A DNA stretch of 64,000 nucleotides from a virus. A program made the position numbers and the translations under genes. The notes under the pieces were generated by a model. The model ran no database searches. It saw nothing but the letters and a program-made list of their open reading frames with translations, and was not told where the DNA came from. The stretch lies in IMG/VR virus record IMGVR_UViG_3300042691_041392. The stretch is one strand, 5' to 3'. Below are positions 13,928-62,739 of this stretch, in pieces; within the stretch, counting starts at the first letter, position 1, and each line of letters begins with the position of its first letter.

Positions 13928-14084
13928 TACCTAACTTTTCTTTTTTACAATAACAAAATTGTTCAAATAAACCACAATCACCGTGGTATTTACCATATAA
14001 CTCCTCATTTCTGTTATTAATTCTGATAATTATTTCATGTGCTGGATTATTAGGATCCAATCCATCGTTTATATTACTTTTCAT
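13911..14084 (-). CDS. Small hypothetical protein (57 aa, MKSNINDGLDPNNPAHE...), below the ORF-track cutoff
   Basis: Fills the gap exactly and overlaps both neighbours, as in an operon. Confidence 0.55.
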   Translation of the reverse strand: MKSNINDGLDPNNPAHEIIIRINNRNEELYGKYHGDCGLFEQFCYCKKEKLGNEQSR

Positions 14085-14595
14085 CTAATAATTTATTTAT
14101 TTTTTCATCTCTATTTATAGTTTTAATAAAGTTTGATATCTCATATACATTACCATCCACTGATACAAAAGTTTGATTTAATCCAGGCAGTCGGTGTATT
14201 GAAAATAATTTAATTTTCTCTTTAGGGAAACCACCATTATTGAAAGTAAGATTAGTAACGGTAAGTATCTTTTTTGTTTTTATATTCAATATTCTCTTAG
14301 ATATTTCACTACTGAAAAAATCAATATCATCAACTATAATATAATCTATTTTATTCTTAATTACCATTTCATCAATCATATCCATAATCATTAAATCTGA
14401 TTGTAAATTGGATTTTATATTGGAAACTTTTAGGAAAAGATGTTTTAATTTTTCTACTTTGAATCGTGAATTAGTACCATCAATTTCTAAGAAAATTATA
14501 TTACTGTTATATAAACATCCAACTATATCTCTTAGTAGAAAAGTTTTCCCTAAGGAATTACTTCCTATAATTAGGTTTATATCTTTATCAAACAT
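14074..14595 (-). CDS. Degenerate RecA/DnaB-like P-loop protein with C-terminal RDEKINKLL motif
   Basis: 'LIIGSNSLGKT' and 'KIDYIIVDDID'. Confidence 0.65.
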   Translation of the reverse strand: MFDKDINLIIGSNSLGKTFLLRDIVGCLYNSNIIFLEIDGTNSRFKVEKLKHLFLKVSNIKSNLQSDLMIMDMIDEMVIKNKIDYIIVDDIDFFSSEISKRILNIKTKKILTVTNLTFNNGGFPKEKIKLFSIHRLPGLNQTFVSVDGNVYEISNFIKTINRDEKINKLLDEK

Positions 14596-14630
14596 ACTAT
14601 TTTATTTATTATAATGACAAAAGTTTCTAA

Positions 14631-15488
14631 TTAAACTTCATTGTTTTTAATGGTGGATTTATTATCCATTGATATGAACTTCCATCCTTTATACTCTGTA
14701 ATTATTCCGTATCTTAATCTTTTTAGATTATAAAAGGTTATTTCATATTTATCTGCCATATTTTTTAAACCACCTTTATGTATTATAATATTACCATTGT
14801 ATTCAAAATAGTAAGTTATTAACTCTTCATGTCTTTTAGTTGTGTTGTATTTATGTTTATTTCTAAATTCAATGGATTGTGTGACTTCTTTTAATTTTTC
14901 AGAATTTCTAAGTGACTCAGATAATTTATTTTTATATTCATCACTTCTTTTTATACCAGTTAATGCCTTTGATATTTTATCTCTATGTTCTAATGATTTT
15001 GGAACACCTATTAAGGATTTTTTTATACATTCCATATGTCCATTGGTATTTTTTTTACCATATCTAGGATTTTTCTCACCAGTATTTATAATTCTATAAT
15101 ATTCTCTAGTCTCATCACTTTTTTTATTTTCAATAGCTTCCTTCCATTTTTCTGATTTTTTAAGTCCAATTTTAACCATATCCGATACGGAGGTTTTTAA
15201 ATAGTCTTTTGTTAGGTTACATAAATTATCTAAGCCAATTTCATCAATTTTTTCATATTCAATTCTATATGCTTCGAGTTCATCATCAGTTTCAAAAATT
15301 TTAGTATATTCAATTTTTTGATCTAATTTTAATATTTCATTTATTTTATTAAAAAGAGCTGAATTATTATTAGATTTGATTCCTTTTATTGCTCTTTGTT
15401 CATGAACATACATTCTATTCTTAGTACCCTTACCTACATAAAAAATTATATCATTGTGGCTTAGTGTATAAACATAATACTTTTTCAT
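14631..15488 (-). CDS. GIY-YIG-type (YVY...YVGKG) homing endonuclease with NUMOD3 repeats
   Basis: 'YYVYTL...FYVGKGTKNR', and 'GEKNPRYGKK' and 'KSLEHRDKISKAL' repeats. Confidence 0.8.
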   Translation of the reverse strand: MKKYYVYTLSHNDIIFYVGKGTKNRMYVHEQRAIKGIKSNNNSALFNKINEILKLDQKIEYTKIFETDDELEAYRIEYEKIDEIGLDNLCNLTKDYLKTSVSDMVKIGLKKSEKWKEAIENKKSDETREYYRIINTGEKNPRYGKKNTNGHMECIKKSLIGVPKSLEHRDKISKALTGIKRSDEYKNKLSESLRNSEKLKEVTQSIEFRNKHKYNTTKRHEELITYYFEYNGNIIIHKGGLKNMADKYEITFYNLKRLRYGIITEYKGWKFISMDNKSTIKNNEV

Positions 15489-15533
15489 AATTCTTAAAGT
15501 TATTTTAAGTATATATAAAAAGAATTGTTCATC

Positions 15534-16338: not shown

Positions 16339-16497
16339 TTAGAACCATTCTATAAAAAGGTCTTGAATAAGTTTGAAACCATTAGGTAATCTACCAATAT
16401 AAATATCATAAGGTTCTTTTTTAAAATGAACCACTTTTATTTTATGTTCGTGTTTTGGTTCTGGCTTTTTAAAACTATTGAAAAAATCATCACTCAT
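16339..16497 (-). pseudogene. Truncated DUF4326-like remnant (52 aa)
   Basis: 'KVVHFKKEPYDIYIGR' matches the DUF4326 N-terminus, then an early stop. Confidence 0.55.
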
Positions 16498-16900
16498 GAC
16501 TTAAAATATTTCTTATTATATCACATTCTTCTTCGGTTAAACCAATCCAACTTCTACATTTAATAACATTATCAACGTGTGGTTCTATATCAAATACTCT
16601 ATCATCAATAACAACATAATTATCAACTTTATTTTTTGATAACCAATCTTTTATTTCTAATCCTCTGTCTTGTTGATCTATATGAGGTGTATAATCAAAT
16701 ATTTCTATATCAATTCCTTGACTAGTAAAAACATTTTGTAGTTCTTCTTTTGTATGATTTAATCTCCAGGTAGAAGTTATTACTGGTTTAAGATCAAACT
16801 CTTTACATAAACGATTATAACAAGCAATCGCCTTTTTATCCCACTTCTTTTTCCAATGAGGATTTAGTACACCATCAATATCTGTAAAAATTACAATCAT
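16490..16900 (-). CDS. HAD domain protein (Swiss-army-knife RNA repair type)
   Basis: 'IFTDIDGVLN', 'ITSTWR', 'RGLEIKDWL' and 'VVIDD'. Confidence 0.85.
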   Translation of the reverse strand: MIVIFTDIDGVLNPHWKKKWDKKAIACYNRLCKEFDLKPVITSTWRLNHTKEELQNVFTSQGIDIEIFDYTPHIDQQDRGLEIKDWLSKNKVDNYVVIDDRVFDIEPHVDNVIKCRSWIGLTEEECDIIRNILSHE

Positions 16901-17328
16901 TTTTTCTCTAAAATAAGAAATTCAAAATAACCACTTTGTCTAATTGACATAGAAAATACGTAACCCATTCTTTCAATAACTCCTTTAATATATTTTATTT
17001 TTTCTTGGAAAAGAAAGTATCTATCATCAGGTATTGAAAATCCAACTCTCGTATCAGTATAAGTAGTAGCAACTTCGGATTCAAAAAGTTCTTCAAATTG
17101 AATTAGATAAGCACACACTTGTTCATTCACACCTCTATATTTAGAAAAATCCTTTTCTTTAATATCACCTAACCAGTCAAGTTGACCATTTGGTTTTGTA
17201 TAAAAAAGTGTGTATTTGATATCGTAATTAAATCCAATATCAGAAAACTCTGTTAAAATATATTTTAAGTTATCTTCATCATCAAAGATATCATCACTTA
17301 AATTTTCGTTAAATTTCTTTATTTTCAT
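16897..17328 (-). CDS. Hypothetical protein with MKIKKFNE N-terminus
   Basis: Shares 'LKYILTEFSDIGF' with 17325-18254 and 45970-46377. Confidence 0.7.
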   Translation of the reverse strand: MKIKKFNENLSDDIFDDEDNLKYILTEFSDIGFNYDIKYTLFYTKPNGQLDWLGDIKEKDFSKYRGVNEQVCAYLIQFEELFESEVATTYTDTRVGFSIPDDRYFLFQEKIKYIKGVIERMGYVFSMSIRQSGYFEFLILEKK

Positions 17329-18254
17329 GCTAATTTAAAATCAACTTTTATTTTATCTTCCAAACCGATCCAAATATCACGTTTTTTAAAAAATCCACTT
17401 TTGATACTTGTTTTATATTCATTAAATGATGATTCATATCCTAAGTTTATAAACTCAATCTTATCACCATTTTTATAATAATAGATTATAGCATTTCTGA
17501 TATATTGTTGAGTTTTGATATCTTCTAATCTTTTATTCTTTAAACTCTCAAATTCAAATTTTATATTATACTTTAATTCAAGATTTTTAATAAAGTTCAT
17601 AAGTGTTTTTTTTATTATATCAATAGACTCTTCTTCATTTGAAACATAATCTAAATCCTTTTCCTTCTCTCTAGTTATTATATTTAATAATTCTTCCGAC
17701 TTTGATTTTCGATCATTGAGATTTAATGAAATTTTAGAAAATCCATTTTCTGAGTTTGATAATTCCATAGAATAATCATCATCACTTACAAATGAGTTAA
17801 TAAGTATTTCTTTTAAGTCATTTATATTGAATTTCAATTTAGTATCATCCTTCTCAATAGGAAATTCAAATACATAAGTTATATCCCAACTACCACCACC
17901 AAACATATAATAAATATCACATTTATCATCAAAAGTACTAATGATGTGATTAGTTGTATTAGTTAAAGAACTAAGTAATTTTGTATTTGTATATTTAGTT
18001 CTTTGAACATTTATATTACTCGGCGCCTTTAATTTTAAAATTAATCTTGGTTTAACCTCACTACTATTCTTATTTACTCTTAGTTTACCATCAGCTCCCA
18101 TAAACGCTATATCATAGGATGTTGTATATCCTAAATCGATAAGATCTATTAAAATATATTTAATTTCCTCATCATCAGTTTCTAATACATTTAGATAATA
18201 CTCTATATAATCAGAAACACTTTCAAATAATTTATACTTTTTTATATACTTCAT
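17325..18254 (-). CDS. Hypothetical protein with MKYIKKYKLFES N-terminus
   Basis: Late motif upstream; 'IKYILIDLIDLGY'. Confidence 0.7.
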   Translation of the reverse strand: MKYIKKYKLFESVSDYIEYYLNVLETDDEEIKYILIDLIDLGYTTSYDIAFMGADGKLRVNKNSSEVKPRLILKLKAPSNINVQRTKYTNTKLLSSLTNTTNHIISTFDDKCDIYYMFGGGSWDITYVFEFPIEKDDTKLKFNINDLKEILINSFVSDDDYSMELSNSENGFSKISLNLNDRKSKSEELLNIITREKEKDLDYVSNEEESIDIIKKTLMNFIKNLELKYNIKFEFESLKNKRLEDIKTQQYIRNAIIYYYKNGDKIEFINLGYESSFNEYKTSIKSGFFKKRDIWIGLEDKIKVDFKLA

Positions 18255-18270: not shown

Positions 18271-18747
18271 TTATAAATCAAACCTTATACATTGATCAGT
18301 AATATATTTAGAGTGTTCTAATTGTAAGTGTGTTGCCAAACCAATTGTAATGTGTAGACCAAAATAAGGCTTAGGATCTAATCCCATAACAGTTCTTATA
18401 TTATGAGCATCATCACAATAAGCTTTTAACCACCAGTGACCTTTTTTATTAGATCTTATATCAGATGGATCGTATTGTATTTTTATTTCTTTACCATGAA
18501 ATAACTCTCTACTCATCATATACAATTCATCATCAACAATATCATTGATAATTGTTAAGTGTGTTCCTCGAATTGGTTTATTTAATACTAAATTAAATCT
18601 TTTTTTTAAGAACCAAGAATAATAAGCATAGGTATCATCATTATTTTGAAATCTAACCATAGCAACTTTTTTCCATGAGGATTGCTTATCGTGTTTTTTA
18701 GTCACGTTTACAGGATCAAATTCTATTTTACCAATTATTTCAAACAT
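18271..18747 (-). CDS. Putative 2H phosphoesterase
   Basis: Two HxT motifs ('GTHLTII', 'GLHITIG') about 70 aa apart in a 158-aa protein. Confidence 0.65.
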   Translation of the reverse strand: MFEIIGKIEFDPVNVTKKHDKQSSWKKVAMVRFQNNDDTYAYYSWFLKKRFNLVLNKPIRGTHLTIINDIVDDELYMMSRELFHGKEIKIQYDPSDIRSNKKGHWWLKAYCDDAHNIRTVMGLDPKPYFGLHITIGLATHLQLEHSKYITDQCIRFDL

Positions 18748-18839: not shown

Positions 18840-19229
18840 TCATGAAATTAATTTGAAAAAATAAGAGAGAAAAACGTCAATTAAAATACAAAAAGCAATA
18901 TAACCTAAAAAGTAAAAAATTAATTTTTTATTGAATTTATCACTCAAAGCAAATTTCTTAAACTTAATCTTATCAAATTTAAATTTATTTACGAGGTTAT
19001 CTAATTTCTGGTCTCTCTCACAACTTTTACATAATTTGAAGTTATTTGTGTTTGAAATATCTTCTATTGTATTCCTTTGATGTCCAGTTTCGGATTTACA
19101 GTTATAGCATTTAACACCAGTAGATAAATCATATAAAATTGATTTACCTTTTTTAATCATATAAAAGTTATATGAAAAAATAGCCAAGACTCCAAGTAAT
19201 TGGAATAAGCTTATTGTAATTGTTATCAT
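18840..19229 (-). CDS. Membrane protein with Zn ribbon and internal RDQKLDNLV motif
   Basis: Two hydrophobic segments flanking CxxC...CxxC. Confidence 0.65.
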   Translation of the reverse strand: MITITISLFQLLGVLAIFSYNFYMIKKGKSILYDLSTGVKCYNCKSETGHQRNTIEDISNTNNFKLCKSCERDQKLDNLVNKFKFDKIKFKKFALSDKFNKKLIFYFLGYIAFCILIDVFLSYFFKLIS

Positions 19230-19465
19230 AAAATTTTATTTAATTTATTATCTCTTATTAGGTCTTTATTTAAATCTAATATTTCTTTATAATTCCATTC
19301 TCTTGATATCCAAAGACCTCCTTGGTATTCAACTCTTTTTTGATAATAAACAGAACATCTGGCACTATCATAATCGATATAAAGACCATTTCCTGGTGTT
19401 GTAACAGAAGTTAATATACCCTTACCAGCAGGAGTATTTACTTCATCCCAAATAGTTAAACTCAT
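19226..19465 (-). CDS. Small protein ending RDNKLNKIL
   Basis: 79 aa, with a TATATTTGTA promoter at 19478-19487. Confidence 0.7.
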   Translation of the reverse strand: MSLTIWDEVNTPAGKGILTSVTTPGNGLYIDYDSARCSVYYQKRVEYQGGLWISREWNYKEILDLNKDLIRDNKLNKIL

Positions 19466-19743: not shown

Positions 19744-20928
19744 TTAATACATATCTTCAAAATCAAATCCATAATCATCTTCTTCTACTAACTGAATAGT
19801 TTCAGATATTGCTTCCATAGGAACTGTTTTTAGTTCTGGTAAGTGTTCAATTAAATCACTTCTACTACCAACATACTCAATTCTACCTGATGCTGACTCA
19901 GAGTAAAGTGAGTGACCATTCCAAATAATCTCTACAAAATCAAATGAGTCAATTTGATTTGATAACCAACTATGAATCATTTTCTTTTCTAACTCAATTT
20001 GTTTTTTGTGTAAATAAACTTTCTTTTCAGAACCGTTTAAATAAACGTGAGTAAAAAAATCAGTACTCCAATTAGGATTAGAAGAAACATATTTTTTGGA
20101 CTTATGAGAAGAATATGAAGATCCACCTCCATATCCAACGCCTCCGCCTCCCCAAAAGCCCCAACCATCATCATCATTCCAACCATCATCGTAGTTGTTT
20201 TGATCTCTTTCAATTGGTAAAGTCTCCCAGTCAATTTCACAAACTGTTTTACATAATCTTTTTAAGTATTCAATATCTTGACGTTCTCTTGTGGTATGTT
20301 CATCATAATAACCAACAGAAATATTAGTACACTCTGGAATTAAGTCCATAAACTTAGCCGAGTCTGTTAAGATACCAGTACTATCTGGTCTCATATTCAT
20401 CGAGTTGTTTGTAACATTCATTCGTTTTGCTAATTCAACAGCGAATGTTTCAGAACAACATCTACCAAACATTTGATAAGTAATAATTGAAGTTGTACCA
20501 CGTCTATCAAAACTAACACACTTGTTGATATGTTTTGAAAACTCAGTATTTTTCCACTCTCTTGCTAATCTACCTGAACCAATACAACCAACTTCTTCAC
20601 CAATAAAGAAGTAGTAAAGACCTGGAACTCCTTTTGATATCATATAGGAAATAACAGTCATACCAGCTTTATCATCAGCACCTAAGATAGAAGTACCATC
20701 TGTACCAATCATATTACCATTAAATACGTGATTTACCTTTTTCTGAGCTTTATCAGCTGTATCTAAGTGGCATGTAAACATAGTTGTTGGTTTATCACCA
20801 ATAACTAAATAGTAGTTTCCTAAACCGTCTTCTTGATATCCCTTTGGTAGATTGTTTAATAAACCTAACTCGGTTCCGTGTGGGTAAGTAAACCTTGTTA
20901 GTTGTAAAAACTTTTTAGTAATTCTCAT
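19744..20928 (-). CDS. M20/M28-family zinc metallopeptidase-like protein
   Basis: 'CHLDT', 'LGADDKAG', 'GEEVG', 'FDRRG', 'TDSA' and 'SVGYYDEH'. Confidence 0.85.
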   Translation of the reverse strand: MRITKKFLQLTRFTYPHGTELGLLNNLPKGYQEDGLGNYYLVIGDKPTTMFTCHLDTADKAQKKVNHVFNGNMIGTDGTSILGADDKAGMTVISYMISKGVPGLYYFFIGEEVGCIGSGRLAREWKNTEFSKHINKCVSFDRRGTTSIITYQMFGRCCSETFAVELAKRMNVTNNSMNMRPDSTGILTDSAKFMDLIPECTNISVGYYDEHTTRERQDIEYLKRLCKTVCEIDWETLPIERDQNNYDDGWNDDDGWGFWGGGGVGYGGGSSYSSHKSKKYVSSNPNWSTDFFTHVYLNGSEKKVYLHKKQIELEKKMIHSWLSNQIDSFDFVEIIWNGHSLYSESASGRIEYVGSRSDLIEHLPELKTVPMEAISETIQLVEEDDYGFDFEDMY

Positions 20929-21004: not shown

Positions 21005-21562
21005 TTATTTTTCATCATCAAATAATGAATCAATTTTCTTATCTCTTATGTAAGCACCTTTCAATTTGTCTAATTCGGTTGTCCATCCATTGATATTATC
21101 TTTAATGAATTTAGATTGTAAATTTCTATTGGCATTGAAACTTGTAGGTGTTGTGATATTTGGATCAAGATTATATTTTATTTCAACATGAAAATCATTT
21201 ACATCATCAGTTGATTTGTAGTGATATTCTTTAGCAATTATAATGAATTTATAATCTAATTTTTCTATGACTTTTAAGAAGTTTGTTACTTGGTGACTTT
21301 TATATTGATAAAGATCAATTACAATTAAGTTAACTCGAAATAGATTTGACTTATCGTTTACTAACTCTTCAAACTCTTCAAAGTTGTTAAATAATATACA
21401 ACTATGTAGTCCGTATATAAGACCACAACTTTTCTCTTTGTTAGGTGCGAAAAGTACATAATTATAATTATCAACTTCAAGGAAGTTAACAACTTCTAAG
21501 AGTACACTGGAAATATGATTAGGTGTCCCAGTAAAGAAATTATACTTTTTTAAAAAAATCAT
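21005..21562 (-). CDS. Hypothetical protein ending RDKKIDSLF
   Basis: 185 aa, with a Walker-B-like 'LIVIDL'. Confidence 0.65.
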   Translation of the reverse strand: MIFLKKYNFFTGTPNHISSVLLEVVNFLEVDNYNYVLFAPNKEKSCGLIYGLHSCILFNNFEEFEELVNDKSNLFRVNLIVIDLYQYKSHQVTNFLKVIEKLDYKFIIIAKEYHYKSTDDVNDFHVEIKYNLDPNITTPTSFNANRNLQSKFIKDNINGWTTELDKLKGAYIRDKKIDSLFDDEK

Positions 21563-21944
21563 TTATATTTAAACATTCTTTATTAACATCAACAATAAAG
21601 TTGAACTTTTGTAGAAATCTTCTTCCTATTAACATAGGATATTGCATATTATCACGATTGTTTAGTGAAACATATAATTTATATGGAGTATTTCCTAAAA
21701 TAACACTTGTGGGAATTGCATAACGTTCTTGTTCATGACCAAATGAACTTTTAACATTTATTGTTTTGAATTTTTCATAGACGAAGTTTTTATCGCCTAT
21801 TCTAAAATGTAATTTACCTTCTAATTCCTCTATCTCGTCACAATGTAAGACATTACTGTAAGCACCTGTGTCGATTTTAGCAGGTACATTAACCAATCCA
21901 AGATCCACAAAATGAAATAATTCTCTCCAACCAACTATATTCAT
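21540..21944 (-). CDS. RimK-associated retropepsin-like putative protease
   Basis: 'VGWRE', 'AKIDTGA' and 'MQYPMLIGRRFL'. Confidence 0.85.
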   Translation of the reverse strand: MNIVGWRELFHFVDLGLVNVPAKIDTGAYSNVLHCDEIEELEGKLHFRIGDKNFVYEKFKTINVKSSFGHEQERYAIPTSVILGNTPYKLYVSLNNRDNMQYPMLIGRRFLQKFNFIVDVNKECLNINDFFKKV

Positions 21945-22008: not shown

Positions 22009-22767
22009 ATGAATTCATATAGTTTTAGCTGTATAATTTTATACAGACACAATATACAGAGATGGAACAATCTAAAAAGAATACTGGAGTGGATAACTGG
22101 ATTTTCTAATGTAGAATTAATAATAGTTGAACAAGATACACATTCTAAAATTGGTCATTTAAACTTTCCAGGAAAACATATCTTTACAAAATCAAAAATG
22201 CCATTCAACCGTTCTTGGGGATTTAATGTTGGTTTAAAACACGTTAATTCAAAAGTTACGGTTTTTACAGACTGTGATTTGATAATGAACCCTGAACTAT
22301 TTATAAGTGGTTTGAAATCATTAGAACAGTTTGAGATGGTTAGTCCTTATAATTCTGTTGTTGATTTAAACCCACAAGAAAGTGGATTTCAATTAGAAGA
22401 GATGTTAAAAATTGATAGACCAGGTAGGGGTGAAAATGATATTCAAAAAATCAACATCTCCGGAGGTATAACTATGTTTAGAACGGATGCTATTAAAAAA
22501 ATCGCAGGGTGGAACGAAGACTTTATTTCTTGGGGAGGTGAAGATGACTTTCAAACTGTTAAGGTGGAGAACTTTTTAACGTGGTATGAACAACCGGGAA
22601 GATGTTACCATCTTTATCACGATAAAGAAAAAATTGACATGAAGTGGTATCAGAGAAATTTACAATTGTTATCGAAATTGAAGTCATTAACAAGAGAAGA
22701 ATTGAGTAAACAAATCATGACTAGTTCTCCAAAAATTGGAATGAAAAATAAATATGATAATTTTTAA
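22009..22767 (+). CDS. Glycosyltransferase (GT2/GT7-C, galactosyltransferase-like)
   Basis: 'IVEQD', 'FNRSWGFNVG', 'DCD' and 'WNEDFISWGGEDD'. Confidence 0.85.
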   Translation: MNSYSFSCIILYRHNIQRWNNLKRILEWITGFSNVELIIVEQDTHSKIGHLNFPGKHIFTKSKMPFNRSWGFNVGLKHVNSKVTVFTDCDLIMNPELFISGLKSLEQFEMVSPYNSVVDLNPQESGFQLEEMLKIDRPGRGENDIQKINISGGITMFRTDAIKKIAGWNEDFISWGGEDDFQTVKVENFLTWYEQPGRCYHLYHDKEKIDMKWYQRNLQLLSKLKSLTREELSKQIMTSSPKIGMKNKYDNF

Positions 22768-27791: not shown

Positions 27792-27865
27792 ATTTTTTTA
27801 TACTTTTTGTTTTGATTTTTGTTTTTATCCAAACTTACTTATATATAAAAAATATAAAATGTAGT

Positions 27866-34519: not shown

Positions 34520-34588
34520 ATAAAATTTTATTTCTGTTATATATTAAATAATTCATGTTTGGACACATGTTACTTAATATATACTACT

Positions 34589-42157: not shown

Positions 42158-42162
42158 TTACT

Positions 42163-47194: not shown

Positions 47195-47225
47195 AAAAAC
47201 CTCTTATTAAATAAGAGGTTTTTTT
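47195..47225. terminator. Bidirectional terminator
   Basis: aaaaacctcttatt-a-aataagaggtttttt. Confidence 0.75.
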
Positions 47226-53765: not shown

Positions 53766-55517
53766 TTAGTTAAGTAATTGATTTCTATCAGTTACAACGA
53801 TAGTCATAAATTGTTTTTGTGGGAACCAACCAACTTCAGCTACTGCGTATCTAGATCTTAGTAACATTCTTGGAGCGAAAGTCGCTTCAGAAATAACTGA
53901 GATAGATTGAGCCATTAAGTAAGGTACGAAGATGATACCTGGTTGATCAGGATTGTTTTTTCTACCTAAAACGATTCTGTTGTCGTTATATTTCATGTAT
54001 GGATCAACATAGATAGAAATATCACCAATTGAACCAACAGGATATAATTGACCTTGTCCGTTTAATTTAGATTTAACTGGGTTAATAGTGTAACCAGCGA
54101 TATCTTGTAAAGCTGCAGCTAATCCCCCGTTTGTGATTAAGTATTGAGCTGGACCTACACGACCTTCAGTTGCGATGTAGTTAGAAGCGTGAGCAATCTT
54201 AGTGATTAACTTTCTTTGAACAGCGTGTGTAGTTTCACCTGTTACAGCAGCACTAGCATAAGCTGTGTTTAAGTCAAAGATTGTTGAAGCAGAACCAGTA
54301 ATTAAAGTACTTGATAAAGAAGTATTTAATGGAGCTGATGTTCTGTTTAACGCACCCATCTCAAAGATTTTAGCAACGATTTGTTTAGAAATTGTTTGAG
54401 ATAACTCGTTAACAAGGATAGATTCCATTTTTTGAACGATATCCATACCTGTGTTAGCTTTAATATCTTCAATTTCTGTTCTTCTTAAAGCTGAAGATAC
54501 TTCAATAGTACCAACTGCGATAGTTTTAGAAGAAATTTTTGGTCCGATAACACCAGCGTAAGAGTCATCGTCAGCATCTCTACCCATTGGGTAAGAACCA
54601 GCAGCGTTAGAAGTAGCAACACCTGTCCAGTTTGCAGAGAAACCAGGGATATGATCTTCTAATGCAGATACTAATTCAACAGTTTTTGTACTTGCACCTG
54701 ATACAGAGTGAGTACCAACAAGAACGATTTGAGATGACATAGAAGCCGTAGCTGAGAATGTATTTCTTGTAGAGTCAAAAGCCCAAGCAGTTGTAAATTG
54801 GTTTACACCTGTGTGAGATGTGTTAGCTTGTCTGTAAGCTCTGAAGATTGGGTAACCATCGATACGAGAGAAACCTAAGAACTCAGCGTAAGCAGCTTTG
54901 TTTGAAGGCTCAGTTTGAGTAAACTCACCACCTACTGGTGCTTCAGATCCTGCTGTGTTAGATGCAGTACCTAAAGTAACCCATACTCTACCACCTTGAA
55001 GACCACCACTTGTTTGAGTAATGTTATATCCAGATAATTTAGTGTTTAATGTTGTAGTAACATTTCCTAATGTAGTAGAGTCTAAGTTTAATTTGAAAAC
55101 TTGTGGTCTCTCATCAGATGCGCCTAATCTTGTATCATCATATTGGAAATCAATATAAAGTAAATCAATTTTCGGACCTGGAGAAGGTTTAACAGCTACT
55201 AAATCTAAACCGATTGTTTGAGCAGCGATTTTCATAGCTACTGGTAAAAGGTTTTGACCAACGTCTCCTGAACCAGCAACACCACCCCAGTTTGCACCAA
55301 CTGTAACACCTGAAGGTGTATTTGAACCAATAACTGGATTTAAAACAGCACCCATACCTGCTACGTTAGAAGCATTTACATATGCATTTTCATTGATTGA
55401 GTGAAACTCAGCGTATTCCGCCATCCATTCAACTCTATCACCTGTAACTCCCATGTTCTCAAGAACCGGAGCCCATTTCTTAGTTGCTTTCGCTTTGTCT
55501 ATTCTAATGTGTGACAT
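53766..55517 (-). CDS. Major capsid protein (T4 gp23-like)
   Basis: 'KKWAPVLE', 'IYVDPY', 'IIFVPY' and 'TFAPRMLLRSRYA'; highly biased codons; downstream of the protease. Confidence 0.93.
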   Translation of the reverse strand: MSHIRIDKAKATKKWAPVLENMGVTGDRVEWMAEYAEFHSINENAYVNASNVAGMGAVLNPVIGSNTPSGVTVGANWGGVAGSGDVGQNLLPVAMKIAAQTIGLDLVAVKPSPGPKIDLLYIDFQYDDTRLGASDERPQVFKLNLDSTTLGNVTTTLNTKLSGYNITQTSGGLQGGRVWVTLGTASNTAGSEAPVGGEFTQTEPSNKAAYAEFLGFSRIDGYPIFRAYRQANTSHTGVNQFTTAWAFDSTRNTFSATASMSSQIVLVGTHSVSGASTKTVELVSALEDHIPGFSANWTGVATSNAAGSYPMGRDADDDSYAGVIGPKISSKTIAVGTIEVSSALRRTEIEDIKANTGMDIVQKMESILVNELSQTISKQIVAKIFEMGALNRTSAPLNTSLSSTLITGSASTIFDLNTAYASAAVTGETTHAVQRKLITKIAHASNYIATEGRVGPAQYLITNGGLAAALQDIAGYTINPVKSKLNGQGQLYPVGSIGDISIYVDPYMKYNDNRIVLGRKNNPDQPGIIFVPYLMAQSISVISEATFAPRMLLRSRYAVAEVGWFPQKQFMTIVVTDRNQLLN

Positions 55518-55603: not shown

Positions 55604-57712
55604 TTAGATGTTTTTGAATCTTTCCATAATAGCATTTACATCATTGTCAGATAATTTATCTTCTTGAATTAAAGCATCATGTGAAACTAATTTTTTAGTT
55701 ACAGATTCATTTGTTTTAAGATTTCTAGTTGCCCAGAAATGCTCAATTTGTGACTCAGTTGTTAACATTTCAGCTGGGTATAATCTAGCTTGTGATAACA
55801 TAGATTTTTTAGCTGATTCATTTAACTGATTCCAGATAGCCTTAGTGTTTTCAGGCATCATTCTGATAACTCTTTCTTCTAGAGTTTCATTTTTAGTTGA
55901 TAATGCTTCAGAAATTAATGAAAGAACTTCTTTTTGTGTGAAGTAACTTCTTTCGTTTATGTGAAGTTTAACAGTTTCTTGTTCTTCATTAGTTAAAGCA
56001 TAGTAACTATCAACTTGTGATTTAGATAAGAATTTTAAGAAATTCAAATCTGATGTCTCGGAAACTTTACGTTTTTTAGCCTCTTCGATTAATTTATTAA
56101 TAGATTCAGATAATTCAGAATCATTGTCACCAGAAACTTCATAGTCCATTGGTCCACATTCTTCATCATCTTCTTCATCTTCTTCGTGTGCATAAGCCTC
56201 TTCAGAACCTACGTGAGAAATACCATTGTATTCTTCTTCATCTTCGTTTTCTTCTTCAGAACCCCAAGCTTCTTCTTCATCCTCATCTTCTAAAGAAGAA
56301 AAACCAGCAGCGTTTAATGTTGGGAAAGCTTCTTCAGCAGATTCGAATAATTTACCACCGTTTAATTTCTCAGCAATCATCCCAGCGTAAGAGATTGATT
56401 TGTCTAAGTTCTCAGCGATATATTCAGAGTAAGCGATATTATCATCTAAGTGTTCAGCGATATATTCTGAATAAGCGATATTACCTTCTACGTGCTCAGC
56501 TAAATACTCAGAGTAAGCAATTGAATTATCAACGTGCTCAGCGATATATTCAGAGTAAGCGATGTTTTTATCTAAGTTTTCAGCGATGTATTCAGAGTAA
56601 GCGATATTCTTATCTAAATTCTCAGCGATATACTCAGAGTAAGCGATGTTTTTATCTAAGTTTTCAGCGATATACTCAGAATAAGAGATATTCTTATCTA
56701 AGTTTTCAGCGATATACTCAGAGTAAGCGATGTTTTTATCTAAGTTTTCAGCAACGTATTCAGAATAAGCGATATTCTTATCTAAATTCTCAGCTAAATA
56801 CTCAGAGTAATTAACAGCTTTTTCTAGATTTTCAGCTAAATAGTCATTGTGTTTAATAAGTTTGTCAGTTGTTTCTTTTAACGACTTGTTCTCATTAACC
56901 ATAATTTGAACTTTTTCAGCTAAATAATCTAAATACTTAACAACTTGAGAATTAGTAGTGTTTAATTCATCATAATACTCAAGTAGTTGTTCTAATTTCT
57001 TAGGGCTTAAGTTACCTTTAGAAATAGCATTCTTAACTTCTTTCTTTGTAGAAGCTAATTCATTAACTAAATACTTAGAGTAATCAGTTAATTGTTGCTT
57101 AGTAACAAACTCATTTTTGTTCATGTTAAATAGATCATTTATTTTTGACTCATCGGACATTTCATATATCCTAAAGTTGGATTGTGGATTATCATAACCT
57201 AGTGATTCATTAAGTGTTTTAACACTCATTTTAGCTGAAGCAAAACCTGGATCAGCAACTATATCATAAGTAAATAATTTCTTTAACGAAACTGATCCGT
57301 CAGACTCAGTAATACCTGCGGCTCTAGAAGAAACAAAAACAGGACATCCGTCATCGACCAATGCCTTAGCTTCTTTACCCCAATAAGTACTTAATAATCT
57401 GATTTCACCAGTGACATTATTAGCCTCTTTAACATAGTTAGCTTTAGTAATTATGTGTGAAGCCCTTGAAAGAGATGTGTCAAATACGTCTGGATGGTCA
57501 AATTCACCATACACAGCACCTAACCCATTCATCCTTTCGTTAAGTTCTTGTAGAGCTGGTAAGAATTTTTCAGCTGTATAAATTCTTTCATTACGGTTTT
57601 TAACACCGAATTCTGTAAATATACCACCTAATACATACTTATCTTTACTCACCGAATTATTCTCAACAATAAGAGAATTAGTTGAATTTTCTACAATTAA
57701 GACTGGTTTCAT
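55604..57712 (-). CDS. Prohead protease (gp21-like) fused to scaffold-like coiled-coil domain
   Basis: 'KNRNERIY', 'GEFDHP', 'VSSRAAG' and 'YDIVADPGF', then 14-aa repeats. Confidence 0.9.
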   Translation of the reverse strand: MKPVLIVENSTNSLIVENNSVSKDKYVLGGIFTEFGVKNRNERIYTAEKFLPALQELNERMNGLGAVYGEFDHPDVFDTSLSRASHIITKANYVKEANNVTGEIRLLSTYWGKEAKALVDDGCPVFVSSRAAGITESDGSVSLKKLFTYDIVADPGFASAKMSVKTLNESLGYDNPQSNFRIYEMSDESKINDLFNMNKNEFVTKQQLTDYSKYLVNELASTKKEVKNAISKGNLSPKKLEQLLEYYDELNTTNSQVVKYLDYLAEKVQIMVNENKSLKETTDKLIKHNDYLAENLEKAVNYSEYLAENLDKNIAYSEYVAENLDKNIAYSEYIAENLDKNISYSEYIAENLDKNIAYSEYIAENLDKNIAYSEYIAENLDKNIAYSEYIAEHVDNSIAYSEYLAEHVEGNIAYSEYIAEHLDDNIAYSEYIAENLDKSISYAGMIAEKLNGGKLFESAEEAFPTLNAAGFSSLEDEDEEEAWGSEEENEDEEEYNGISHVGSEEAYAHEEDEEDDEECGPMDYEVSGDNDSELSESINKLIEEAKKRKVSETSDLNFLKFLSKSQVDSYYALTNEEQETVKLHINERSYFTQKEVLSLISEALSTKNETLEERVIRMMPENTKAIWNQLNESAKKSMLSQARLYPAEMLTTESQIEHFWATRNLKTNESVTKKLVSHDALIQEDKLSDNDVNAIMERFKNI
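56375..56836 (-). repeat. 11 in-frame 42-bp repeats (AENLDKNIAYSEYI)
   Basis: Counted in the translation. Confidence 0.9.
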
Positions 57713-57856: not shown

Positions 57857-58288
57857 ATGAAAAATAAAATACATGTATATTTATATAAAATGATTCTAAC
57901 TAGAGAAATAGATGTAAAGATTAGTGAGTCCAATTTTCATTACTATGAAGACTTAGGATATGATATAGGATTGGGTGAGGTTATTACCATACCAGTAGAA
58001 TTACTTTCGAAAGGTTCCCATCATAAAATAAAGTGCCAATGTGATAGTTGTGGTATAGAAAAACAGGTTATATATAAAAACTATCTTAAATACGACAATA
58101 AGAATTGGGGAGACTATTTTTGTAGAAAATGTTCAGAAATAAAAAGAAAAGAAACACTAAGAAAAAACTTTGGTGTTGATTATCCTATACAAAATAAAAA
58201 AGTATTATCTAAAATGAAAAATACCTTAGTTGAAAAATACGGTGTAGATAATATATCAAAAAAGAATAAAATAAATAAAGATGGCTAA
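57857..58288 (+). CDS. Zn-ribbon protein resembling a homing-endonuclease DNA-binding region with no nuclease domain
   Basis: 'KGSHHKIKCQCDSCG', 'CRKC' and 'KYGVDN' repeats. Confidence 0.6.
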   Translation: MKNKIHVYLYKMILTREIDVKISESNFHYYEDLGYDIGLGEVITIPVELLSKGSHHKIKCQCDSCGIEKQVIYKNYLKYDNKNWGDYFCRKCSEIKRKETLRKNFGVDYPIQNKKVLSKMKNTLVEKYGVDNISKKNKINKDG

Positions 58289-60185
58289 ATACAATGAAGG
58301 AGATATTCTTGAATCTCAAATAGAATTCTCCGTTAGCGGAAATGCAACTGTCAAAGTTGATGGAAAAGAATTTTTCGTACATAAAAAGAGAACGTTAAAT
58401 TCACTACACTTAGATAAAGTAAGATTTGTTCTCTTTAAAGGAGAAAAAAAATTAGAAGCAAAAGTAATAGAGGTAGTTGAAAGATTTAAATTAGAATTTG
58501 TAGGAACTACTCAAGTTAAAAAAGATCACACATTTGTTATACCAGATAACTCAAAAATACACGTTGACTTTTATATAAAAGGTAAACACTCAGCAGAAGA
58601 TAATCAAAAAGTACTTGTTAAATTTGATAGTTGGGAAAACGGTCAAAAATCACCAAATGCTAAAATTGTTAAAATTTTAGGAACTGTTGGTGAGAATGAA
58701 ACCGAAATGAACGCTATTATGTATGAATATAACTTACCAGTGGATTTCCCACAAGAAGTTTTAAATGAATCAGAGTTAATATCAGAAGTTATTACTGAGA
58801 AAGAGATATCTAAAAGAAGAGATTTGAGAAATATAACTACAATCGGTATCGATCCGTTTGATTCAAAAGATGCTGATGATACAATCGGATTAGAATTTAA
58901 AGATGGTAAAAGATATGTTTCTATAAATATCGCAGATGTTACACACTATATAAAACCAGGAAGTGCCTTAGATGAAGAAGCTTATAAAAGATCATCTTCT
59001 GTTTATTTAGTTGATAGATGTGTGCCAATGATACCAAAAAGATTGAGTAATGGTATATGTTCTTTAAAATCAGGTAGTGATAAACTATGTTACTCTGTTA
59101 TAGTTGAATTAGATACAAATGGTAGAATTGAAAACACTTGGTTTGGTAGAACTATTGTAAACGTAAATAAAGACTATTCTTATGAAATGGCTCAAGAAGT
59201 TATCGACAGAGGAACAGCATCAGAAGAAAATAAAGATTGTGATGAGGTTATTTTAGAATTACACAGATTAGCTTTAAAAATGAGAAGAAGAAGAATGTTA
59301 GGAGGTTCCATGGAAATTGGTGGTGTTGAAGTTAAATTCAAATTAGCTGATGATAATAAAAAACCAATTGGACTTTATTTAAAAGAACAAAAAGAAGCTA
59401 ATCACTTAATAGAAGAATATATGTTATTAGCGAATAGAGAAGTTGCTAAGTTTATTAAGTCTAGAGGGTTACCTTGTGTTAATAGAATTCACGAAGAACC
59501 GGATGAAACTAAATTAGAACATATTAAAACATTCATATCAACTTTAGGATATGAAGTAAATTACGGTGATACACCTGAGAAGACTAAATTAGTTATAAAT
59601 GAACTAATGAAAAGTTGCAAAGGAACTAGTGAGGAAAACATCATTACAACTTTAATAGTTAGAGCTCAGCAAAAGGCTAAATATACAACTAGAAACATTG
59701 GTCATTATGGTTTGGGATTTGAACACTATTCACACTTCACAAGTCCGATTAGAAGATATAGTGATATGTTGACACATAGATTATTATCAATGGCATTGAA
59801 AAGTGAGGGATATAGTAAAGATGTTAAACCAAACGAATTAGAAAAACAATGTGAGTGGATATCTAAACAAGAAGTAGTATCAGCAAAAGCTCAAAGAGAT
59901 TCTATTAAGTATAAACAAGCTGAATACTTAGGAGACAGAATTGGTCAAGTTTTTGATGGAATTGTTTCAGGTGTATTAGATAGAGGAATCTATGTAGAAT
60001 TGTTTGAAAGTAAATGTGAAGGTTTAATAAAACTAAGTAGTTTAGAAGGAAAATGGATGGCTTATCCAGATAATTACTATGCTGTTAGTGATTTAGGTGA
60101 TAAAGTTAGATTAGGTGATCCAATAAAGGTTGTTGTTAAGTCAGTTGATTTAGAAAAGAAACAAATCGATTTTTTAAAATTTTAA
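58281..60185 (+). CDS. rnr: Ribonuclease R (RNB family)
   Basis: 'IDPFDSKDADD', 'IADV', 'LIEEYMLLAN', 'YSHFTSPIRRYSD' and C-terminal S1. Confidence 0.92.
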   Translation: MAKYNEGDILESQIEFSVSGNATVKVDGKEFFVHKKRTLNSLHLDKVRFVLFKGEKKLEAKVIEVVERFKLEFVGTTQVKKDHTFVIPDNSKIHVDFYIKGKHSAEDNQKVLVKFDSWENGQKSPNAKIVKILGTVGENETEMNAIMYEYNLPVDFPQEVLNESELISEVITEKEISKRRDLRNITTIGIDPFDSKDADDTIGLEFKDGKRYVSINIADVTHYIKPGSALDEEAYKRSSSVYLVDRCVPMIPKRLSNGICSLKSGSDKLCYSVIVELDTNGRIENTWFGRTIVNVNKDYSYEMAQEVIDRGTASEENKDCDEVILELHRLALKMRRRRMLGGSMEIGGVEVKFKLADDNKKPIGLYLKEQKEANHLIEEYMLLANREVAKFIKSRGLPCVNRIHEEPDETKLEHIKTFISTLGYEVNYGDTPEKTKLVINELMKSCKGTSEENIITTLIVRAQQKAKYTTRNIGHYGLGFEHYSHFTSPIRRYSDMLTHRLLSMALKSEGYSKDVKPNELEKQCEWISKQEVVSAKAQRDSIKYKQAEYLGDRIGQVFDGIVSGVLDRGIYVELFESKCEGLIKLSSLEGKWMAYPDNYYAVSDLGDKVRLGDPIKVVVKSVDLEKKQIDFLKF

Positions 60186-60187
60186 TT

Positions 60188-60646
60188 ATGGGACAATTAT
60201 ATAGAGTAGATAATGAGGATTCTCATTTAAAAAATAGAATTAAAAAATTCTATTTAGAAGGAATTAAATTATCACAATTTGAAAATAAATTAGAAAAGTG
60301 GCCCAACTGGTTACAATTTAAAAGAGAAATTAAGTTGAACTCTTTACTAGAAGGTAAAAGAGTTCAATTTGATATTGAAGATATTAATGAATGGGGTAAA
60401 ATTGATAGTGTTAAATCAAATGATATGAGTTTATCTGATGTGGTTTTTTCGGTTAAAAGAATCACAATGATTATAAAAGATGATATTGTCGATGAGTTAG
60501 AAATTGAATGGAGACCATTACAAACAGAATTGGGTAGATCAATAATTGGATTATTAGATGCTGGAATTGATGTAGATATATCTATGAGTTTCTTTGAGGA
60601 TCAATTTAGTCATTTTTATATAAAAACAGAAAAGAATGTAGCATAA
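60188..60646 (+). CDS. Degenerate prohead-protease-like protein with internal REIKLNSLL motif
   Basis: WGKIDSVKSNDMSLS vs gp21 YGEFDHPDVFDTSLS; RPLQTELGRSIIGLLDAG vs RLLSTYWGKEAKALVDDG. Confidence 0.65.
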   Translation: MGQLYRVDNEDSHLKNRIKKFYLEGIKLSQFENKLEKWPNWLQFKREIKLNSLLEGKRVQFDIEDINEWGKIDSVKSNDMSLSDVVFSVKRITMIIKDDIVDELEIEWRPLQTELGRSIIGLLDAGIDVDISMSFFEDQFSHFYIKTEKNVA

Positions 60647-60677: not shown

Positions 60678-60683
60678 ATATCA

Positions 60684-62435
60684 TTAAAATTCAAACTCAC
60701 TACCACCTTGAGCACCACCACCTTGAGCTGGAGGAGCTTCGGGAGCCGCTTGTCCACCACCTTGAGCAGGAGCCTCAGGAGCCGCTTGTCCACCGGCTTG
60801 AGCACCACCTTGAGCACCCATTTCACCACCGACTTGAGCACCACCTTGAGCACCCATTTCACCACCGACTTGAGCACCACCTTGAGCACCCGGAGCGGCT
60901 CCGGCGCCAGCAGCATCTTTAGCCCAATATTTCTGGTTTTCAGCTTTTTCTTCAGGTGTTAATTTAAATACGTGATCCATTATCCATTCAATATGGAAAT
61001 AAGGTTTTTCACCATTCATAATACCAGTAAGTGTACCAATTGCTTCAGCTCTTTTAGCTAAATTATTAATCTTTTTCCACTCTTCAAAAATTTGATTTGA
61101 GTTGAAATCAATATCTATCTCATTCATTATAATATCATCTTCTCTGAGTTCTGGAAATTCAACTAACATTTGTAGTTTAAGAGGTTTTACTATAATTTCT
61201 TTAAAATTTGCTCTTAATCTACCAATAAAATTATGAAACTTAACTTCATCATTTGTCATACCAGCTTGATCAGCAACAAAAGTACCACCACCACCTTCAG
61301 CTTCAAATCGATTAATTGGAATTTTAGAAGCTCTTTTAAGTGCCATGTGAAACCACTTCAACATACCATCTTCATTTATATCATGTCCTTGAGGAGCAAC
61401 TAATTCCATATTAGGAGTACCAGCATCACCATCAGGAAACCATACTTGTTTATTATACGGAATATGTTTAGCACCATTTATAGAAATTGTACCCAATGTA
61501 TCATCAAATTCAATTTCTTCTGAATAATCTTGTATCAATTGACCTATTTGTTCTTCCGCCTTTTGTCTAGATAAACCTTTGATCGGAATAGTAAATTTTT
61601 GATAGACAGTAGCATTCATTATATTAAACATAATTCTTGTTTGCTCAAGAATTTTTAACTGGTTATAAGGTTTAATTAAACCTTCAACATATGAAGTCTC
61701 AGAAAAATCATTTTGAGTTGAATATGAAATAAATGCTATTTGAGAATCTAAAAATATTCTTCTCAACTGCGGATCTTCAGGAAACTGAATCCATAAGTGA
61801 CCAACGTTTGGTTCATAAGCTGGTACAATACTTTCTGGTTTTAACCTATTAAATGCGATTATATTCTTCTTTTTATCATCCCAAACTAATTCAACTGCCA
61901 AATAACCATCTATAAGAAAGTCTCTCATCATGTTAAAAGCAGTAACACTATCTGAAAATCCAAACTTATTATATATTTTTTCAAAAAATTCTTGATATTT
62001 ATCTTTTATATCTTGTGAATAGTCAGAAGATAATGGTGATGGTGAACAAAAGTCTTTAGTATCATTATAAACAATGGACTCATCCGCGATAGCACTAATA
62101 AAATCTCTAATTTCATCTTTAATTGAATATTCTCTTAGTATTCTTCTTTTATCAGGATAAGACTTATCCAAATAAGGTATAGATTTTCTATTTAAAACCG
62201 AAGCAACCGCTCTTTGAGAAAAGAAGTCATACATTGAACTACCTCTCGCTGCATAAGGATCTTCGTTAATACCAACACCAACTTGATTTCTGATGATCAT
62301 ATCATCGTAGTTCATACCATAGTTAGATAAGTTTCTTAATATTCTACTAAAAAGACCTTTATTTTCTACAGCGGAATTCACAAAACCCATTCCACCTTGA
62401 GAGTTATTATTATTTGTATAATTATATGAAGCCAT
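60684..62435 (-). CDS. Portal protein (T4 gp20-like) with G/A/Q/P-rich tail
   Basis: 'IDG', 'IKPYNQLKILE', 'RASKIPINRF', 'DEVKFHNFIGRLR' and 'PLKLQM'. Confidence 0.92.
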   Translation of the reverse strand: MASYNYTNNNNSQGGMGFVNSAVENKGLFSRILRNLSNYGMNYDDMIIRNQVGVGINEDPYAARGSSMYDFFSQRAVASVLNRKSIPYLDKSYPDKRRILREYSIKDEIRDFISAIADESIVYNDTKDFCSPSPLSSDYSQDIKDKYQEFFEKIYNKFGFSDSVTAFNMMRDFLIDGYLAVELVWDDKKKNIIAFNRLKPESIVPAYEPNVGHLWIQFPEDPQLRRIFLDSQIAFISYSTQNDFSETSYVEGLIKPYNQLKILEQTRIMFNIMNATVYQKFTIPIKGLSRQKAEEQIGQLIQDYSEEIEFDDTLGTISINGAKHIPYNKQVWFPDGDAGTPNMELVAPQGHDINEDGMLKWFHMALKRASKIPINRFEAEGGGGTFVADQAGMTNDEVKFHNFIGRLRANFKEIIVKPLKLQMLVEFPELREDDIIMNEIDIDFNSNQIFEEWKKINNLAKRAEAIGTLTGIMNGEKPYFHIEWIMDHVFKLTPEEKAENQKYWAKDAAGAGAAPGAQGGAQVGGEMGAQGGAQVGGEMGAQGGAQAGGQAAPEAPAQGGGQAAPEAPPAQGGGAQGGSEFEF

Positions 62436-62488
62436 TAAAAATTATAAATTTTAATGGTATATATAAAAATATGAACTCCCTAAAATGA

Positions 62489-62514
62489 AAAAAGAGACCC
62501 AAAGGTCTCTTTTT
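62489..62514 (-). terminator. Terminator hairpin
   Basis: aaaagagacc-caaa-ggtctctttt. Confidence 0.7.
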
Positions 62515-62739
62515 CTATATTCCTAATTCATTCAGTTTATTATCTCTCAACTTTTCTTTTAGTCTAAGTTCGTAGTCTTCTAACTTTACACTAAAACTAT
62601 TAGACCAAATAAGTTCTCTATAAGGGGCCATTATCCACTCATTGTGTAAATAAACATTTTCAAAAATGATATTTTTTCTTTTTACAGTAGGATCTTTCTC
62701 AATAATAAAATCCTTAATTAATTCATAATCATACTTCAT
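62515..62739 (-). CDS. Small protein ending RDNKLNELGI
   Basis: 74 aa. Confidence 0.7.
   Translation of the reverse strand: MKYDYELIKDFIIEKDPTVKRKNIIFENVYLHNEWIMAPYRELIWSNSFSVKLEDYELRLKEKLRDNKLNELGI

Follow-up and report, generated by a model that had tools for sequence, protein, structure and literature searches.

A portable C-terminal peptide tag on unrelated small proteins of a megaphage subclade, and its proposed reading as a docking helix

Why should small phage proteins with little else in common end in the same short peptide? The question is raised by a 64,000-nucleotide stretch of viral DNA (IMG/VR record IMGVR_UViG_3300042691_041392; hereafter the window, meaning this whole stretch), in which R-[DEN]-x-K-[IL]-x-x-[IL]-[L/F/GI] forms the end of eight open reading frames (ORFs) and an internal copy of it is found in four more. 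An earlier note, made from the letters of this DNA, had proposed that the peptide is an amphipathic docking helix which addresses many cargo domains to one hub. Following up this proposal, we found that the peptide (the C-tag, or simply the tag) is portable, that it marks non-late accessory proteins and that it is confined to one subclade of megaphages. In our judgement these data are best explained by a portable address or docking helix that one shared partner recognises, a reading to which we give a little more than an even chance.

The window has a GC content of ~28% and represents a T4-like megaphage, kin of the 635-kb record LR745206, with a T4-type portal gene (60684-62435) and a gene for a gp23-type major capsid protein (MCP, 53766-55517). 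Its nearest public records are uncultured megaphages, namely LR745206 (portal 78% identical) and LR756502 (642 kb), with LR756504, LR756501/3 (735 kb), LR756500 and the Lak phages coming next. These nearest records fall in the Mahaphage group, whose huge genomes (>634 kb) have Bacteroidetes as their predicted host phylum (PMC7162821). Genome-wide statistics were taken from LR745206, which was analysed whole (947 ORFs), and 41-kb pieces were used of five further relatives.

The tag and its carriers

Instances of the tag were scored with a position-specific matrix, at a threshold of >=10. By this measure the window contains 12 matches, compared with 0.38 in residue-shuffled proteins. All eight C-terminal instances listed in the earlier note were recovered, 0-4 residues before the stop and all on the minus strand, as were two of its internal ones, at residue 72 of one protein and residue 46 of another. 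The matrix added an instance in a helicase gene that the note had not listed, and a further weak internal one. The variant RNIAIDVVL, which the note had also counted, scored below 10 and is not a supported instance.

In LR745206, the same matrix marks 142 of the 947 ORFs (0.15 in shuffles), that is, ~15% of the proteins or about one in seven. The strict pattern matched 66 times as against 0.03 in shuffles, with 54 of the 66 matches lying at most eight residues from the C-terminus. The form ending in LGI occurs 19 times, and among the high-scoring matrix matches four are N-terminal and 12 internal, at what look like domain junctions. The tag is portable: it stands at the C-terminus, at times at the N-terminus or at a domain junction, on unrelated bodies.

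The carriers are small, with a median length of 102 aa in LR745206; they make up 26% of all ORFs of 80-120 aa, and almost none exceeds 250 aa. After trimming of the tag, 112 of the 113 LR745206 carriers are BLAST singletons, and searches of Pfam, PHROGs and NCBIfam returned no families except for a capsid fragment and weak P-loop matches, the largest carriers having no Pfam family. A transmembrane-like segment is present in 6 of the 113, and the carriers are soluble. That the carriers share nothing else, as had been claimed, is thus correct by BLAST and overstated in one respect: in the window, two of them derive from the capsid protein and a third is the core of a RecA-like ATPase. Nor are the carriers all featureless, since some are minimised or fragment copies of the phage's own capsid, scaffold, prohead protease or DNA polymerase.

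The extended consensus reads [T/S]-K-[S/Q]-E-[I/L]-R-[D/E/N]-x-K-[I/L]-[N/D/K]-x-[I/L]-[L or G-I]-[D/N/K]-stop. Such a peptide would form a self-contained helix of ~13 residues with an N-cap (capping box T/S-K-S/Q-E), followed by a short tail, which is polar or charged. Counting from the arginine as position 0 and with a spacing of 100 degrees per residue, R0, K3, I4, I7, L8 and K-4 would come to lie on one face of the helix, and acidic or polar residues on the opposite one. In LR756504 the tag takes the variant form R-K-x-K-I-[DE]-x-L-L; because it has Lys at position 1 and Asp or Glu at position 5, its sequence suggests that these two positions may merely stabilise the helix, with R0, K3 and the three aliphatic residues as the constant surface. 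In an AlphaFold2 (AF2) model of a P-loop carrier, the tag lies within the last helix (residues 153-171), at low local confidence and not firmly packed.

The DNA is not repeated, from which it had been argued that the peptide and not the DNA is conserved, and codon use and reading frame show selection on the peptide. Synonymous codons in the tag are used as they are genome-wide (Arg AGA 73% vs 76%, Lys AAA 81% vs 74%), the hydrophobic positions alternate between ATT, ATA, TTA and CTN, so that Ile and Leu codons with different first bases replace one another, and 139 of the 164 matches of a DNA matrix built from in-frame tags fall in the sense reading frame. Moreover, the two endings, 'L' and 'G-I', are intelligible solely as protein. 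The DNA of the tag is rich in A/T, and many carriers run into the start of the next gene, as might be expected if the tag were a nucleic-acid signal, such as a promoter, translation-initiation region or recombination site of that gene. However, the overlaps between a carrier's stop and the next start come in many lengths (-1 to -43 nt), 23 of 111 carriers are followed by no gene on their strand, and one carrier in the window (47224-47553) closes its gene block, with a terminator-like hairpin behind it and no downstream gene on its strand, so that its tag is not a signal for a following gene. An artefact of K/I/L/N-rich composition is countered by the shuffles, which yield 0.03-0.4 matches where 54-142 are observed. 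Given the free codon choice, the frame, the shuffles and the varied overlaps, we reject both the RNA or DNA signal and the composition artefact, to which we leave next to no probability.

Orthologs of the carriers keep the motif, as the docking proposal would have it: R0, K3 and the hydrophobic residues at positions 4, 7 and 8 are retained at 31-50% identity. Three carrier pairs between the window and LR745206 (31-48% identity) keep the tag, which is also retained in an independent contig, L026. A detectable LR745206 ortholog exists for only three of the eight window carriers, so the carrier bodies turn over quickly; in their sequences the carriers look like fast-evolving, mutually unrelated accessory proteins. 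The tag itself is the trait of a single subclade, because a degenerate DNA pattern gave 96 matches in LR756502 (12 in the control) and 46 in LR756504 (18 in the control), and background only in LR756501, LR756500 and Lak-B4. The instances in the window are collected in the table.

Table. Carriers of the tag in the window, with the position of the tag core and the matrix score
Positions	Strand	Protein	Tag or protein end	Core	Score	Further observations
14074-14595	-	173 aa, minimal RecA/KaiC-like P-loop ATPase	end ...INRDEKINKLLDEK	14086-14112	22.9	Pfam, weak TK/AAA; AF2 pTM 0.64; Foldseek, KaiC/RadA/UvsX; tag kept in orthologs of 50% identity
19226-19465	-	79 aa, orphan	end ...LIRDNKLNKIL-stop	19229-19255	25.5	no family in Pfam and PHROG searches
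21005-21562	-	185 aa, orphan	end ...YIRDKKIDSLFDDEK	21020-21046	16.3	overlaps upstream RimB-like peptidase gene; ortholog LR745206 226370-226933 keeps tag at 42% overall identity
26296-26469	-	57-aa mini-ORF, gp23-type capsid fragment	basic tag RRNKIKKIFKK	26305-26331	21.1	aa 1-47: Pfam Gp23, E 5.8e-9; PHROG major head protein, E 7.6e-9
47224-47553	-	109 aa, orphan	end ...VYRDLKLNKLL-stop	47227-47253	24.3
47546-47767	-	73 aa, beta-rich orphan	end ...DKRDFKIKKILND	47555-47581	23.3	LR745206 ortholog keeps tag; AF2 model (no alignment) with beta body and unpacked tag, pLDDT 58, too weak for tag conformation
47757-48461	-	234 aa, minimised MCP paralog	end ...QMRDEKIDKLLNGN	47769-47795		BLASTP vs MCP 53766-55517, E 7e-10; ortholog LR745206 207176-207907 matches its own phage's MCP (E 5e-15) and keeps tag
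62515-62739	-	74 aa, orphan just upstream of portal gene	end ...KLRDNKLNELGI ('LGI' form)	62521-62547	24.4
18840-19229	-	129 aa	internal CERDQKLDNLV at aa 72, then hydrophobic C-terminal segment	18990-19016	16.4
60188-60646	+	152 aa	near N-terminus, aa 46 (FKREIKLNSLLEGK)	60323-60349	23.1	LR745206 ortholog has tag at aa 32
6296-7963	-	XPD/DinG-like helicase	internal tag-like loop DKRDLKISKVL at aa 246	7202-7228	18.1	LR745206 ortholog tag-like at same position
27773-29509			internal, weak			found with matrix
23715-24431	+	238 aa, minimised capsid-protein paralog	claimed variant RNIAIDVVL		below 10	BLASTP vs MCP, E 1e-9

A second tag and a putative late promoter

A different peptide, M-K-[Y/H]-[L/I]-K-x-[F/Y]-[N/E]-E, starts 71 of the 947 LR745206 ORFs, compared with 1.6 in shuffles, and its sequence resembles the T4 capsid targeting sequence (CTS). 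In the window, this N-terminal tag (N-tag) is found on 3672-4475, 16897-17328, 17325-18254, 45970-46377, 46393-46860 and 53072-53686. None of the 71 LR745206 ORFs that start with it carries the C-tag, where 8.5 such cases would be expected.

Genes with the two tags also differ in what lies upstream. The motif TAATATAT(A) precedes the protease-scaffold and portal genes, and the MCP gene has the variant TTATATATA. It stands ~13-14 or 28-35 nt ahead of the starts of head, fibre, N-tag and homing-endonuclease-like genes, those with the motif or its variant in the window including 53766-55517, 55604-57712, 51190-53034, 38184-41252 and 41298-41732. From its position, TAATATAT(A) is probably this clade's late promoter, the analog of the T4 late promoter TATAAATA. 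It is enriched ahead of N-tag genes: TAATATAT occurs at most 50 nt upstream of 32 of the 71 N-tag genes and of 11-22% of other genes, and of none of the 113 C-tag genes. When co-directional blocks behind the motif are considered, the shares are 85% for N-tag genes, 38-47% for others and 19% for C-tag genes. The C-tag marks non-late accessory proteins, and is a label distinct from the presumed head-loading one. What is new here is the limit to one subclade, the lack of co-occurrence with the N-tag and the absence directly behind the putative late promoter.

These findings bear on the idea that the C-tag itself loads cargo into the head for co-injection, in the manner of the T4 CTS, encapsulin cargo peptides or the coat-binding helix of the P22 scaffold. 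The capsid is a high-capacity hub, the carriers are small like the T4 internal proteins, one tagged ORF adjoins the portal gene and some carriers are capsid or scaffold fragments. In addition, the C-terminus of the P22 scaffold, YRKLKAKLKGIR, has essential residues R293 and K296, with the same R...K spacing as the tag; a search of the Protein Data Bank (PDB) with a tag profile did not retrieve the P22 scaffold domain. Nevertheless, a separate CTS-like tag exists in the same genome and never coincides with the C-tag, and C-tag genes are depleted from late units. An [ILVM]-x-E protease site has no consistent place ahead of the tag (no immediately upstream position has it in more than 10 of 113), and the scaffold has the same repeat architecture in the tag-negative LR756501. 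Since the two tags exclude each other and no putative late promoter directly precedes C-tag genes, we consider a head-loading role very unlikely, and the earlier suggestion of a compartment, if this were to be the capsid, loses ground with it. The scaffold was also considered as a reader by phyletic profile, which proved uninformative, as the protease-scaffold fusion is equally present in LR756501.

Docking-helix reading, candidate readers and rivals

Much of the docking proposal is borne out: the conservation is at the peptide level, the peptide is portable, the bodies are unrelated and the helix is predicted to be N-capped and one-faced. That there is a hub or reader, and what it is, we infer. 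The subclade attaches the tag to well over 100 small unrelated accessory proteins from non-late transcription units, and in the docking reading all carriers would engage one partner through the conserved face, with R0 and K3 beside I4, I7 and L8. The site on the partner would probably be a hydrophobic groove with an acidic rim. The C-tag would then act as a second label, separate from the CTS-like N-terminal label of late proteins, and most likely would not load proteins into the head. The leading candidates for its reader would be the phage's own ClpC-like unfoldase, which has no N-domain, together with ClpP, and a clade-restricted RimB-like retropepsin peptidase; towards the Clp candidate, the tag would act as a tether or turnover signal. 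Both are leads only, and a host hub is equally possible.

Several points weigh against this reading. The tag-positive genomes form one clade, so that the correlations with ClpC plus ClpP and with the RimB-like peptidase are confounded by descent. The identity of the late promoter is deduced from a site upstream of head genes, and the AF2 models are of low confidence (pLDDT 58-64). Finally, with no more than three or four hydrophobic residues, the helix might also be a generic element of structure or stability.

This last point leads to an explanation with no reader at all, in which the tag is an intrinsic C-terminal capping or solubilising helix, or an end that protects small, marginal proteins from tail-specific proteolysis. 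The carriers are indeed small orphans with a polar or charged tail behind the helix, and the basic position 1 and acidic position 5 of the LR756504 variant suggest an i/i+4 salt bridge within the helix. Still, the charged R0 and K3 are invariant over >100 unrelated bodies and across clades, the tag also works at N-termini and domain junctions, it strictly excludes the N-tag and its carriers are biased in expression class; a generic stabiliser, moreover, would not be limited to one subclade. On balance, we hold this explanation to be unlikely.

The Clp candidate is a specific version of the docking reading, with the tag as a tether or turnover signal that brings early proteins, or their binding targets, to the phage's ClpC-like protein and ClpP; the outcome would be timed removal of early proteins or adaptor-mediated targeted proteolysis. 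AAA+ proteases offer the classic case of one reader with many terminally tagged clients (ssrA, the XB tail of SspB, the VipB helix bound by ClpV). LR745206 encodes a 701-aa ClpC-like AAA+ protein (423224-425329, handle L009) that has an acidic N-terminal tail and no Clp_N domain, and two ClpP genes (123556-124221 and 75119-75859). LR745206, LR756502 and LR756504 each have such a ClpC-like protein of 666-719 aa along with two or three ClpP, and the protein is 83-88% identical across >100 metagenomic protein clusters, on contigs of up to 591 kb. The combination is absent from the two tag-negative relatives examined, LR756501 having no ClpP and Lak-B4 having only a 425-aa AAA_2 protein. The next gene downstream of one ClpP gene is tagged (210 aa), and the gene directly upstream of the ClpC-like gene ends tag-like both in LR745206 and in contig L026, where two genes downstream of the ClpC-like gene are also tagged. 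One carrier has a UVR motif like that of the M-domain of the ClpC-like protein. On the other hand, the correlation comes from five phylogenetically non-independent genomes, and tagged neighbours are not rare when 15% of genes are tagged. The variable tail and the internal and N-terminal copies misfit a terminal degron and would better suit a tether, and no ClpS- or MecA-like family was found among the neighbours of the Clp genes. We regard the Clp version as rather unlikely.

In the window the RimB-like retropepsin aspartic peptidase is encoded at 21540-21944 (Pfam PF05618, E 3.5e-15), in overlap with the tagged gene 21005-21562, and in LR745206 a copy overlaps this gene's tagged ortholog. Members of the family occur in the window, LR745206 and LR756504, and none in the tag-negative LR756501, LR756500 and Lak-B4. 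Polyglutamate tails at C-termini are the substrate of the RimB proteases characterised so far (PMC11957791). The tag-positive genomes contain no RimK that could partner the peptidase.

An alternative that draws on the bodies of the carriers is that they are decoys or baits, which bind or mimic other proteins and, in part, are mini-copies of phage proteins; the helix would couple them to one effector or sequestering partner, blunting host sensors of phage proteins or poisoning competing phages. In its favour is a basic subclass of the tag, R-[K/R]-x-K-I-x-x-I-F, on ORFs of 46-83 aa whose bodies are pieces of conserved phage proteins. Besides the capsid fragment in the window, these include, in LR745206, an MCP C-terminal piece with the basic tag (255010-255237), four scaffold repeats (E 9e-41), the prohead-protease motif LF..D.VADPGF, the DNA-polymerase motif A DFASLYPSTQR and a CTS-like peptide. 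Their DNA is 67-70% identical to that of the parent genes; the fragments are therefore old and have been kept as peptides. Also consistent with decoys, the minimised MCP paralogs (47757-48461 and its ortholog) carry the standard tag, and the P-loop carrier is a bare RecA/KaiC/RadA-like core. Against this, carriers overall are not clearly enriched for likeness to larger phage proteins (8 of 113, compared with 30 of 624 small non-carriers), several of the fragments match over a short span (11-15 residues, E 1e-4 to 5e-3), and no sensor or target is known. On the same counts we reject the idea that carriers in general are fragments of larger phage proteins: core-protein fragments are a subclass, not the rule. 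As an account of the tag as a whole, we find the decoy idea doubtful.

A docking motif for the sliding clamp (of the PIP-box kind) or for another part of the replisome was also weighed. In its h-x-x-h-h spacing and the polar residue three positions ahead of this, the tag fits the PIP-box pattern, and the motif is carried by two helicases (XPD-like and UvsW-like) and the RecA-like ATPase. Over 100 orphan carriers are, however, far too many for a clamp, and the tag has aliphatic I-L instead of the usual aromatic pair. With Pfam PF02916 and PF09116, no gp45-type clamp was found in three tag-positive genomes, although a divergent clamp or one supplied by the host could escape these profiles. Of the split polymerase, the window covers the N-terminal fragment, which ends without the tag, and not the C-terminal one. 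We consider replisome docking to be highly improbable.

Returning to the docking reading, a broader form of it is a two-label sorting code, in which the CTS-like N-terminal label directs late proteins to the head and the C-tag marks >100 early or middle proteins, mini-copies included, for a second destination, perhaps ClpC-like/ClpP. We offer this tentatively, as a possibility with a modest chance of being right. If it were true and ClpC-like/ClpP were the destination, the carriers would be an adaptor library or clients of timed turnover, and together would make up a viral targeted-proteolysis network in bacteria.

Setting in the window and comparison with known systems

Several features of the surrounding genes deserve mention in their own right. 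In the head module, the S77 prohead protease and a repeat-rich scaffold-like region are fused in one ORF (55604-57712); the scaffold-like part consists of ~12 tandem 14-residue repeats (AYSEYIAENLDKNI) and a long acidic stretch, and the fusion architecture is kept in LR745206, LR756502, LR756504 and LR756501. Two paralogous metallopeptidases of the M20/M28 type (PepT-like; 19744-20928 and 51190-53034) are 54% identical over 240 aa, one lying in the head module beside the capsid gene and the other beside the RimB-like gene and a tagged gene. Two replication genes are split: the two ORFs of a DnaB/gp41-like helicase flank a 393-aa endonuclease-like gene (487-1656, 1649-2830, 2854-3582), and the family-B DNA polymerase ORF ends after the polymerase domain begins and is followed by a DUF723/treble-clef zinc-finger gene. 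Three paralogous genes of this zinc-finger type resemble homing endonucleases, and a GIY-YIG/NUMOD3 endonuclease lies nearby (10890-12416, 9911-10879, 7863-8981, 22764-23681 and 14631-15488 for the polymerase and endonuclease-like set).

Two giant genes with collagen-triple-helix repeats (34559-38140, 1193 aa, and 38184-41252, 1022 aa) have related C-termini and a locally raised GC content of 35-38%. After them come three paralogous proteins of 141-284 aa (41298-43017); giants and paralogs alike are probably fibre or decoration proteins. The window also encodes an RNase II/R-type exoribonuclease (58281-60185; RNB, E 2e-98), a NADAR-like domain protein (50162-50668), and HAD and 2H domains (16490-16900, 18271-18747), which belong to 'Swiss Army Knife' RNA-repair proteins.

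The genes of huge phages are mostly small orphans that offer no handle for study, and one peptide on ~15% of the proteome of a 635-kb phage offers such a handle. A literature search of open-access papers and preprints found no description of the tag, in agreement with the earlier note. The tag defines a functional class, that of non-late accessory proteins, and predicts a single hub that could be fished with one synthetic peptide. Along with the N-tag, it suggests that giant phages may sort their proteomes by short address labels. Were its reader the phage's own Clp machine or a peptidase, this would be virus-run protein turnover, or an adaptor system, without a described counterpart in bacteria. 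The tagged pieces of core proteins (capsid, scaffold, protease and polymerase) hint at decoys or interference peptides, and for work in the host phylum the tag could become a portable means of docking proteins or degrading them.

How does the tag compare with known systems? Its letters coincide with the catalytic loop of eukaryotic-type protein kinases, Y-R-D-L-K-L-D-N-L-L (YRDLKLDNLL in AGC kinases), and such loops were the only matches when a profile made from an alignment of 107 tags was run against all PDB sequences, at chance level (E 1.5-2.1). The kinase loop is a look-alike and not a relative: its invariant Asn (+5 from the catalytic Asp) is present in 12 of 113 tags, and the tag forms the last 13 residues of 46-250-aa proteins, too short a tail to be a kinase. 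Like the tag, the PIP-box and LxxLL motifs place h-x-x-h-h behind a basic residue on a short helix suited to a hydrophobic cleft, but they occur on few replication or transcription proteins as opposed to >100 orphans, the tag is aliphatic rather than aromatic, and no clamp was found.

Closer in kind are short peptides that bring many proteins to one partner. The T4 CTS (on IPI-III and Alt) is a short, portable terminal peptide on unrelated small phage proteins with a single assembly partner, and the present phage is itself T4-like in its portal, gp23-type MCP and S77 prohead protease. Yet the CTS stands at the N-terminus of late proteins and is removed by the prohead protease, whereas the tag is C-terminal, non-late and has no protease site, and it never occurs together with the CTS-like N-tag of the same genome. 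The tags and tethers of AAA+ machines (ssrA, the C-terminal XB of SspB for ClpX, the VipB helix at the ClpV N-domain) are likewise terminal peptides that serve one machine with many clients or adaptors, and phages with the tag have ClpC-like and ClpP genes of their own; there is no likeness in sequence, however, and the phage ClpC-like protein has no N-domain, the part to which such peptides usually bind. For 'one helix, many cargos', the nearest functional analogy is with the encapsulin cargo-loading and microcompartment encapsulation peptides. We know of no shell or compartment for the early proteins of these phages, encapsulin and microcompartment shell genes having been outside our searches. 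These peptides, too, are short amphipathic helices at either terminus, joined by a linker to unrelated cargo and bound by one partner; they differ from the tag in sequence, and the scale of the tag, at ~15% of a proteome, is far larger.

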